This document shows, one piece after another, positions 29,221 through 30,449 of a DNA stretch of 32,000 bases (within the stretch, counting starts at the first letter, position 1; each line of letters starts with the position of its first letter). Source of the stretch: Trichlorobacter lovleyi SZ (GTDB taxonomy: Bacteria > Desulfobacterota > Desulfuromonadia > Geobacterales > Pseudopelobacteraceae); contig NC_010814.1 in NCBI RefSeq assembly GCF_000020385.1, positions 3,720,001 to 3,752,000 of the forward strand, written 5' to 3'. Below the pieces are notes generated by a model, which did not search any database, was not told where the DNA came from, and was given only the letters and a program-made list of their open reading frames with translations. The translations under genes were made by a program, and so were the position numbers.

Positions 29221-29652
29221 TTATTTTCCGGAATGGTTTTGTTTGTAGATATCATAAAAATTGACTGGTGGTAACAATAGAGGCGTAAACCCACCCCGCC
29301 TGGTTAGATCAGCAACCACTTCACGCAGGAATGGAAAAAGAATTGAAGCGCAGTTGATCTCTGCAACATGATCAATCTGATCTTTCTCACTGAGTGCAGT
29401 TTTGAAGGTAAAGATTCCGCCCATTGACACGTCAAGGCTAAACGGAGAGTTATCCCCTGATACATTTACCGTGAGAGCAAGATTGATTGAGCTGTTTGAT
29501 TCCTGCCAGGCGTGTTTAATCGTGATCCTGGTATCAATAGATATTTCTTCTTGTGAATCAACTCGCTGGTTTGCAGTAAAGTTGGCCGACAGCACGCGAT
29601 AATCTGTCAGACTGAACTGATACATCTCTGGCGTTTGTTTAACCTTGGGCAT
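29221..29652 (-). CDS. SecB-like chaperone (TAC-system chaperone)
   Basis: Collinear with E. coli SecB. Compare LALTVNVSG...SMGGIFTF...[38 protein letters not shown] with SecB VVLRVTVTA...QQGGIFSI...[36 protein letters not shown]. The start is uncertain (29652 overlapping the antitoxin by 14 nt, or 29625). The ORF-track start at 29736 is unlikely. Confidence 0.85.
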   Translation of the reverse strand: [143 protein letters not shown]

Positions 29653-29986
29653 GACGATATACCTGTTGATCACGGACTGCTCGATAAGCGATGCTAACAA
29701 CTTTTGAAACAGCCTCAGAGACAGGCTCCACTGCAAGAGTTGGGGTAAACTTCAATCCTACAGCCCTTGAAAGCATGACCATGCTCTCAATCGTAAGGTT
29801 GGCATCCCCAGACATGACTTTAGTGATATAAGCGGGGCTTTTACCGATACGCCGTGCCAAATCCGACTTAGAAACACCCTTCTCGGTCATAGCCTTGTTA
29901 AGTGAAGTAACGAATTCAAGCTTGGCCATTTCAGCCCAAAATTCATTACTCTGCATATCTTGCTTTATCAGTTTAACAACTGACAT
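29639..29986 (-). CDS. XRE-family HTH antitoxin (HigA-like) with C-terminal tail
   Basis: HTH_XRE core GVSKSDLARRIGKSPAYITKVMSGDANLTIESMVMLSRAVG followed by a tail of about 35 aa. GGAGGG RBS lies inside the toxin 3' end, with a 5-nt gap after the toxin stop. Confidence 0.85.
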   Translation of the reverse strand: MSVVKLIKQDMQSNEFWAEMAKLEFVTSLNKAMTEKGVSKSDLARRIGKSPAYITKVMSGDANLTIESMVMLSRAVGLKFTPTLAVEPVSEAVSKVVSIAYRAVRDQQVYRHAQG

Positions 29987-29991
29987 TTTGA

Positions 29992-30405
29992 TTACCCTCC
30001 TGGAAGTTCTGTTACATTACTTCTGGCTTTTTGCAGCCGATAGTCACGCAAAGCCTCAGTTGCATGCCTAATAACTGCCAGCGGTGTCTTCTGGGTTTTC
30101 TTTACAAAGGCATGGCAGCACGCAACAATCTTGCCTTCATCGTAAAACCATACCACTCTAATATGCCCTTTTCTGAACTGCCAAATATCAGTTGCAATTG
30201 TGTGACATATTTCAGGTGGCAAAAGTCTCGGACCATTTAACGCCACATAGGCAAATAGCCTCCTGATCGCCACGCCATCTTTTTCATAATTTGTAGGAAG
30301 GCTGGAAAGGAAATCATCAACCTGACATTCCGTTTGGCTTTCGCAGGTAGCAACAACCTTCCAGGTGCTATTTAATTCGGTAGGTATCAGGCTTTTTATG
30401 AACAC
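29992..30405 (-). CDS. RelE/HigB-superfamily toxin (phage Gp49-like)
   Basis: IWQFRKGHIRVVWFYDEGKIVACCHAFVKKTQKTPLAVIRHATEALRDY matches the Gp49/HigB pattern (..ElR....yRv.yf......ivll..F.KKtqktP..ei..A). The toxin-first order is typical of higBA. It has a GTG start with only a weak RBS. Confidence 0.8.
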   Translation of the reverse strand: MFIKSLIPTELNSTWKVVATCESQTECQVDDFLSSLPTNYEKDGVAIRRLFAYVALNGPRLLPPEICHTIATDIWQFRKGHIRVVWFYDEGKIVACCHAFVKKTQKTPLAVIRHATEALRDYRLQKARSNVTELPGG

Positions 30406-30410
30406 TTTTA

Positions 30411-30449
30411 ACCTATAGGTAAAATATCATTGTTAACTATTTTCTTCAA
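30411..30449 (-). promoter_or_regulatory. candidate promoter/operator of the TAC operon
   Basis: On the minus strand, TTGAAG (30449-30444), a 17-nt spacer, then TATTTT (30426-30421). A perfect 10-bp palindrome ACCTATAGGT (30411-30420) follows, 5 nt upstream of the toxin start. Confidence 0.3.

Follow-up and report, generated by a model that had tools for sequence, protein, structure and literature searches.

The stretch of DNA analysed here (32,000 nt, hereafter the window; contig NC_010814.1, positions 3,720,001 to 3,752,000) comes from Trichlorobacter (Geobacter) lovleyi SZ and carries the operon higB-higA-secB(TA) (Glov_3492-3490). We read this operon, with a probability of about 0.95, as a toxin-antitoxin-chaperone (TAC) system, in which a type II toxin-antitoxin (TA) pair is made dependent on a dedicated SecB-like chaperone. 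The system, Glov-TAC, is already known and was characterised experimentally on the same DNA, being one of the four TACs functionally characterised by Bordes et al. 2016 (Nat Commun 7:13339, PMC5105189). Nothing that we found contradicts this molecular assignment, and what the present analysis adds to the 2016 paper is the genomic context, the terminator, a conserved upstream block and the relatives found in metagenomes. The locus carries little weight as a discovery, and the concept of chaperone addiction was itself partly established with the chaperone-addiction segment (ChAD) of the Glov antitoxin.

Identity of the locus and protein families

An exact-sequence look-up found the toxin, the antitoxin and the chaperone to be identical to ACD97195.1, ACD97194.1 and ACD97193.1, respectively, from T. 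lovleyi ATCC BAA-1151/DSM 17278; the FtsK encoded in the window is likewise ACD97178.1 of that strain. We also matched against the window the six cloning primers of Bordes et al. 2016, designed for Glov-HigBA, Glov-SecB(TA) and the Glov ChAD (constructs pK6-Glov-HigBA and pSE-Glov-SecB(TA)). All six match at the expected ends, the sole mismatch being the engineered change of the GTG start to ATG, and the amplicon lengths implied by the primer sites, 767 nt for HigBA and 432 nt for Glov_3490, equal the published lengths. Because both the proteins and the primers are identical, the locus is the published Glov-TAC; no difference was seen in locus, proteins, primers or ChAD boundaries (residues 86-115). 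A structural study published afterwards (Guillet et al. 2019) makes no mention of Glov-TAC. The features of the operon and the primer sites are as follows.

30406-30468, minus strand: conserved upstream block of 63 nt, with a candidate promoter, the palindrome ACCTATAGGT and an AGG Shine-Dalgarno sequence
29992-30405, minus strand: higB toxin gene (Glov_3492, ACD97195.1), 137 aa, GTG start; Gp49/HigB type, RelE superfamily
29639-29986, minus strand: higA antitoxin gene (Glov_3491, ACD97194.1), 115 aa; XRE-type helix-turn-helix (HTH) core at about residues 21-80 plus a C-terminal tail
29642-29731, minus strand: ChAD codons, HigA residues 86-115 (VEPVSEAVSKVVSIAYRAVRDQQVYRHAQG), published boundaries, with primers C1GlovFORFusion and TAGlov-RevFusion at the edge
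29221-29652, minus strand: gene for the SecB-like chaperone SecB(TA) (Glov_3490, ACD97193.1), 143 aa from ATG
29177-29204, minus strand: intrinsic-terminator-like hairpin, GCCCC..GGGGC followed by TTTTATT, 17 nt past the chaperone stop
30383-30405: primer TGlovFORE/N, matching except for the engineered ATG in place of GTG
29639-29662: primer AGlovREVH/Bam, matching
29732-29753: primer TAGlov-RevFusion, matching
29710-29731: primer C1GlovFORFusion, matching
29630-29652: primer CGlovFORE/N, matching
29221-29245: primer CGlovREVH/Bam, matching

The three genes are co-directional and linked in the order toxin, antitoxin, SecB-like chaperone that is typical of a TAC, and this order is kept in the relatives. 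Toxin and antitoxin genes are separated by 5 nt (29987-29991), and the antitoxin and chaperone genes overlap by 14 nt (29639-29652); in the mechanical list of open reading frames (ORFs), the chaperone frame had been extended upstream to a TTG at 29736. The single terminator-like hairpin after the third gene is predicted to close the operon, and its sequence is identical in two related loci (L010 and L011; such numbers designate related loci throughout).

In Pfam profile searches, the toxin matched Gp49 (PF05973; E 8.6e-18, 64.6 bits against a cut-off of 23.9), and it also matched HigB of Streptococcus pneumoniae in the PDB (6af3_A; E 3.7e-5). Residues 31-80 of the antitoxin matched HTH_3 (PF01381; E 1e-8, Pfam), leaving a tail of 35 aa (residues 81-115), while its matches to HigA models were weak (TIGR02607, E 0.0021, below the cut-off; 6af3_B, E 0.47). 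The Gp49, HTH_3 and HigB 6af3_A matches together place the pair in a TA family recognised in TACs (HigBA, MqsRA or HicAB). The third protein belongs to the SecB family, as expected of a TAC chaperone (PF02556, Pfam; E 3.3e-23, 82.6 bits against a cut-off of 26), and phmmer aligned it with E. coli SecB (PDB 1qyn; E 5.4e-10) and with SecB of H. influenzae.

These results agree with an earlier interpretation of the same letters, made without database searches (the sequence-only reading), which had described co-directional genes with a 5-nt gap and an overlap of about 14 nt, encoding a Gp49/HigB toxin, an XRE HTH antitoxin of 115 aa with a C-terminal tail of about 35 aa, and a SecB-like protein. 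The coordinates coincide, all three families were recovered above the Pfam cut-offs, HTH_3 ends at residue 80, and the motif alignment with E. coli SecB was reproduced by phmmer against 1qyn. That call shows that a TAC is recognisable from raw sequence.

Chaperone dependence and the antitoxin tail

The evidence that carries the assignment is experimental (Bordes et al. 2016, PMC5105189). Co-expression of Glov-HigB and HigA halts E. coli growth unless SecB(TA) is also made. The Glov ChAD comprises the last 30 residues of HigA (residues 86-115): when it was grafted on M. tuberculosis HigA1, control passed to the Glov chaperone, and when the M. tuberculosis ChAD was swapped into Glov-HigA, Glov-HigBA came to depend on the SecB(TA) of M. 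tuberculosis. Glov-HigBA is controlled by neither non-cognate TAC chaperones nor E. coli SecB; Glov-SecB(TA) is able to control the non-cognate MqsRA of V. cholerae and, when overexpressed, relieves an E. coli delta-secB strain of its cold sensitivity. Thus, the class proposed in the sequence-only reading, that of M. tuberculosis HigB1-HigA1-SecB(TA), had been demonstrated for this very DNA, and the toxicity and rescue assays that it suggested had already been published for Glov, as chaperone rescue and with ChAD-swap chimeras in place of a tail deletion.

Our own results on the antitoxin tail are consistent with the ChAD mechanism. Beyond the HTH domain, which ends at residue 80 of 115, the tail contains the motif KVVSIAYRA..Q.VYR.AQG, which includes Y101 and Y110 and is invariant in two aligned homologues (overall identity, 81% and 80%). 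When the antitoxin was modelled by AlphaFold from its single sequence, the predicted local distance difference test score (pLDDT) was 86-95 in the core and about 50-56 in the tail. The C-terminal extension delimited by the HTH boundary, the low tail pLDDT and the conserved motif is the one to which the published ChAD belongs.

Compared with M. tuberculosis HigB1-HigA1-SecB(TA) (Rv1955-Rv1957), Glov-TAC has the same gene order, a Gp49/HigB toxin, an XRE-HTH antitoxin with a ChAD and a SecB-like chaperone, and the ChADs of the two systems are exchangeable as units (Bordes et al. 2016, PMC5105189). The two chaperones, however, are only about 19% identical and give no cross-protection, and E. coli SecB controls the M. 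tuberculosis HigBA1 pair but not Glov-HigBA (Bordes et al. 2016, PMC5105189). The ChADs also differ in length, 30 aa in Glov against about 46 in M. tuberculosis, and share no sequence similarity. A PDB sequence search with the Glov chaperone did not retrieve the M. tuberculosis SecB(TA) structure.

By homology and on the model of the M. tuberculosis and E. coli HigBAC systems, the ChAD would keep free HigA unfolded or aggregation-prone until a SecB(TA) tetramer recognises aromatic or hydrophobic residues in it, for which the conserved Y101 and Y110 are candidates. Folded HigA would then bind HigB, presumably a ribosome-dependent RNase of the RelE superfamily. By analogy, it probably also acts at the conserved promoter-proximal block as repressor of its own operon, and titration or depletion of the chaperone, by anything, would free the toxin.

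A different interpretation is that the third gene encodes a general export chaperone that merely adjoins an ordinary HigBA pair. The databases label the three proteins 'protein-export chaperone SecB', 'XRE family regulator' and 'RelE/ParE family toxin', so public annotation still presents this TAC chaperone as an export SecB. The sequence-only reading had foreseen such labels for this copy of a class that it took to be rarely annotated; the labels are as it predicted, but the system had not been overlooked, having been characterised in 2016. The Glov chaperone is of the same fold family (PF02556) as the housekeeping SecB of E. coli and H. influenzae and shares with it the helix-1 motif ILFP..RE......RG.F..L.L.PVNF. 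The overexpressed copy complements E. coli delta-secB (Bordes et al. 2016, PMC5105189), and T. lovleyi may have no other SecB, given that, when the alpha-, beta- and gamma-proteobacteria are left aside, a solitary SecB is absent from more than 90% of the genomes that carry a TA-associated one (PMC4257090).

Against the export interpretation, Glov-HigA cannot neutralise Glov-HigB without the chaperone, and this dependence maps to the antitoxin tail (Bordes et al. 2016, PMC5105189). The gene overlaps higA by 14 nt, appears to be co-transcribed with the TA pair and lies inside a mobile element. Moreover, unlike housekeeping SecB, the protein scores below every NCBIfam SecB equivalog cut-off (TIGR00809, NF004390-4 and NF009590; best score, 75.3 against 143 bits), reaching 62.9 against a cut-off of 102.8 for TIGR00809, which leaves it outside the housekeeping family. 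It has 143 aa, whereas E. coli SecB has 155, and lacks the acidic C-terminal tail region aligned in the latter. We consider an export chaperone beside an ordinary TA pair very improbable, since the published chaperone-dependence experiments refute it as the sole function, in line with the view in the sequence-only reading that this copy is not the housekeeping chaperone. The Glov chaperone may still have a side role in export.

One test put forward in that reading fared worse. It had held that finding this gene to be the only secB in the genome, and able to complement export, would overturn a TAC. That proposal is ill-posed: overexpressed Glov-SecB(TA) does complement delta-secB, and the gene is likely to be the only secB of T. 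lovleyi, judging from the pattern seen in over 90% of comparable genomes (PMC4257090). Because M. tuberculosis shows the same pattern, these two properties do not discriminate between a TAC and an export chaperone; the direct chaperone-dependence experiment does.

Candidate control region upstream of the toxin gene

The 63-nt block upstream of higB (30406-30468) is 87% identical to its counterparts in L003 and in L006, whereas in the comparison between L003 and the window the toxin coding sequence is 63% identical and the remaining intergenic region 46%. By inspection, a candidate promoter, TTGAAG-17 nt-TATTTT, was found in the block. The palindrome ACCTATAGGT, at 30411-30420, lies 5 nt upstream of the toxin GTG and is kept in five of six loci, with one mismatch in L004. 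Relative to the candidate promoter, it would come after the -10 hexamer and before the start codon and would overlap the Shine-Dalgarno sequence. It is a reasonable operator candidate. A longer imperfect palindrome at 30418-30451 was set aside, as it is not conserved in the relatives.

Three limits attach to the overall interpretation of the locus as a TAC operon with its own control region. All the functional results were obtained with the genes expressed heterologously in E. coli. The candidate promoter agrees with the consensus at 8 of 12 positions and falls below the scan threshold. Finally, the palindrome alone is within chance, the window containing 38 perfect 10-nt palindromes against 32 +/- 5 in shuffled sequences, and we rejected it as a statistically significant feature. 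The proposal in the sequence-only reading that a palindrome at the toxin start serves as operator holds as to its presence, and the element stands as a candidate only.

A prophage-like element at smc and the possible role of the module

The operon lies in a region of lower GC content (0.46 at 29-31 kb, compared with about 0.57 for the core) directly downstream of a tyrosine integrase gene, which agrees with the AT-richer island beside an integrase noticed in the sequence-only reading. The features of this region are as follows.

30542-31771, minus strand: tyrosine integrase, 409-aa form (mechanical ORF to 31846), with Phage_integrase and Arm-DNA-bind_3 domains; phrog_1, E 1.3e-52
31902-31918, plus strand: smc start (ATGAAAATCAAACGACT; MKIKRLEIAGFKSF...), one copy of a putative attachment-site repeat
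24216-24232, plus strand: second copy of the smc 5' end, 16 of 17 nt, with a stop codon directly after it; putative distal end of the element
26308-28731 (approximate), minus strand: IS21-family insertion sequence (IS), with istA at 27098-28612 and istB at 26374-27138, between the TAC and a 643-aa ORF
24382-26313, minus strand: 643-aa ORF

We take the two 17-nt smc copies to be putative attachment-site repeats, flanking an element that would have integrated at the smc 5' end. The bracketed element of strain SZ spans about 7.7 kb of lower GC content and holds the integrase, the TAC, the IS21 and the 643-aa ORF. An integrase of 408-413 aa occupies the same position in all the related loci, and it adjoins smc in related metagenomic loci as well (L002, L005, L006 and L011); the SMC N-terminus MKIKRLEIAGFKSF... 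is identical to that of the SMC beside the integrase in L011.

The IS assignment rests on matches to transpos_IS21 (NCBIfam; E 9e-87) and IstB_IS21 (E 3e-75) and on perfect inverted repeats of 29 bp (26337-26365 and 28664-28692); no target-site duplication is evident at the IS ends. L011, from another T. lovleyi assembly, runs uninterrupted through the right-hand IS junction, without the IS21. This arrangement suggests that an IS-associated deletion removed the middle of the element in SZ, which looks like a decayed, IS21-disrupted prophage-like remnant with an intact TAC.

The N-terminus of the 643-aa ORF is rich in Ala, and its long middle part is charged and coiled-coil-like; no match was found in Pfam, PADLOC or PHROG. 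Its 5' end abuts the IS21 end, and it may be a truncated gene. We considered the DUF927 primase-like gene of intact elements as its origin and found no similarity; the impression of a truncated, tape-measure-like protein was likewise unsupported.

A search of an index of 5.8 billion proteins gave 17 matches to the chaperone. Those that are 80-100% identical always occur in the order integrase, Gp49, HTH (115 aa), SecB. The proteins of L003, for example, are 58% (toxin), 81% (antitoxin) and 87% (chaperone) identical to those of the window. The toxin gene seemed to be missing from L002, L005 and L006; this was a gene-calling artefact, as a GTG-start toxin gene is intact in all three. A more distant chaperone (43% identical) is part of an MqsR-MqsA(172 aa)-SecB triad in another integrase-bearing region (L007, 4138-5429), which appears to be a further uncharacterised TAC of the MqsRA type; association with several TA families is typical of the TAC class (PMC3581621). 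A distant blastn search of the locus against plasmids returned no match, and scanning genome contigs with the chaperone yielded a single, uninformative match, a weak one of 27 residues in a Verrucomicrobiales metagenome-assembled genome (L001).

In the related loci, the TAC lies between the integrase and a repressor-like HTH gene of a prophage-like element. In the intact elements L010 and L012, variable accessory genes come next, followed by a divergent repressor-like HTH gene and by HTH_17, DUF927, major capsid and tape-measure genes. Judging from this genomic context, a prophage-like element would carry the TAC as cargo, in the accessory slot nearest to its integrase.

The next slot, right after the TAC, varies by contig (L010, 3919-4557; L012, 1479-2840; L002 and L003, 6626-7798 and 5199-6371), with an NYN nuclease-domain gene, DUF4160/DUF2442 plus BrnT/BrnA, or HSDR_N, and resembles a variable defence or accessory hotspot.

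Closer to the operon, a stretch of about 430 nt 3' of the secB(TA) terminator lacks a convincing ORF (window, about 28790-29220; L010, 3477-3900; L011, 10428-10860). The window and L011 are near-identical here, and L010 is highly similar. An Rfam search of this stretch gave a chance-level match only. A regulatory RNA may lie in it, or small genes (gene calling placed ORFs of 41 and 58 aa at this position in L002 and L003).

What the module does for its carrier can be judged from this context and from its counterparts. One reading is anti-phage abortive infection encoded by the prophage: a phage structural protein would compete with the HigA ChAD for SecB(TA), HigA would not fold and HigB would stop translation. 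In E. coli, HigBAC and CmdTAC give protection from phages, the chaperone being the sensor, and HigBAC senses the lambda tail protein gpV. The Glov chaperone matches the PADLOC model of the CmdTAC chaperone (PD-T4-9_C; E 1.7e-15), the antitoxin matches the candidate defence family PDC-M64B (PADLOC), and the related loci carry the module in a slot of the sort that typically holds accessory or defence cargo in prophages, with NYN, BrnT/BrnA and HSDR_N as variable neighbours. E. coli NT1F31 HigBAC and CmdTAC (PD-T4-9) (Mets et al. 2024; Vassallo et al. 2022/2024) share with Glov-TAC the TA-SecB architecture and recognition of the ChAD via aromatics, and the location of Glov-TAC on a prophage or other mobile element is consistent with theirs.

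The likeness has its limits. CmdT is an ADP-ribosyltransferase and not a HigB, and E. coli HigA has a far longer ChAD (96 aa, four aromatics) than the Glov antitoxin (30 aa, two Tyr). HigBAC and CmdTAC are phage-protective, whereas Glov-TAC is likened to them through chaperone similarity and prophage-slot context alone, and this context is equally compatible with element maintenance. Among the papers searched, a single one mentions both lovleyi and SecB, and none links G. lovleyi SecB to phage. On balance, we regard abortive infection as a serious possibility whose odds fall somewhat short of even.

Alternatively, the module may mainly stabilise the integrated element through addiction, and may have kept the integrase-proximal remnant in SZ during its decay. 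TA and TAC systems are common in horizontally acquired regions, about 75% of TAC/AC systems bearing signatures of horizontal transfer (PMC3581621), and the TAC is still intact in an SZ element that has otherwise been reduced to the integrase, the IS21 and one ORF. This argument is purely circumstantial, however, as an intact TAC in a remnant also fits defence or neutral persistence, and we hold stabilisation as the main role to be rather unlikely.

With respect to phage defence, we would tentatively propose, while expecting that it may well prove wrong, that Glov-TAC is a prophage-carried anti-phage sensor of the Trichlorobacter smc elements, and that one of the structural proteins of a superinfecting phage would titrate its SecB(TA), by analogy with HigBAC. 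If so, the 30-aa, two-Tyr ChAD would be the minimal known sensor-competitor element. The carriage by a prophage-like element at smc, the conserved promoter/operator block and the metagenome relatives could guide a test of phage defence.

Elsewhere in the window, a full-length SAM riboswitch (RF00162, 74 bits) was detected at 19157-19264 on the plus strand, immediately upstream of a 387-aa alpha/beta-hydrolase ORF (19271-20434), which is followed by a PP-loop ATPase gene.

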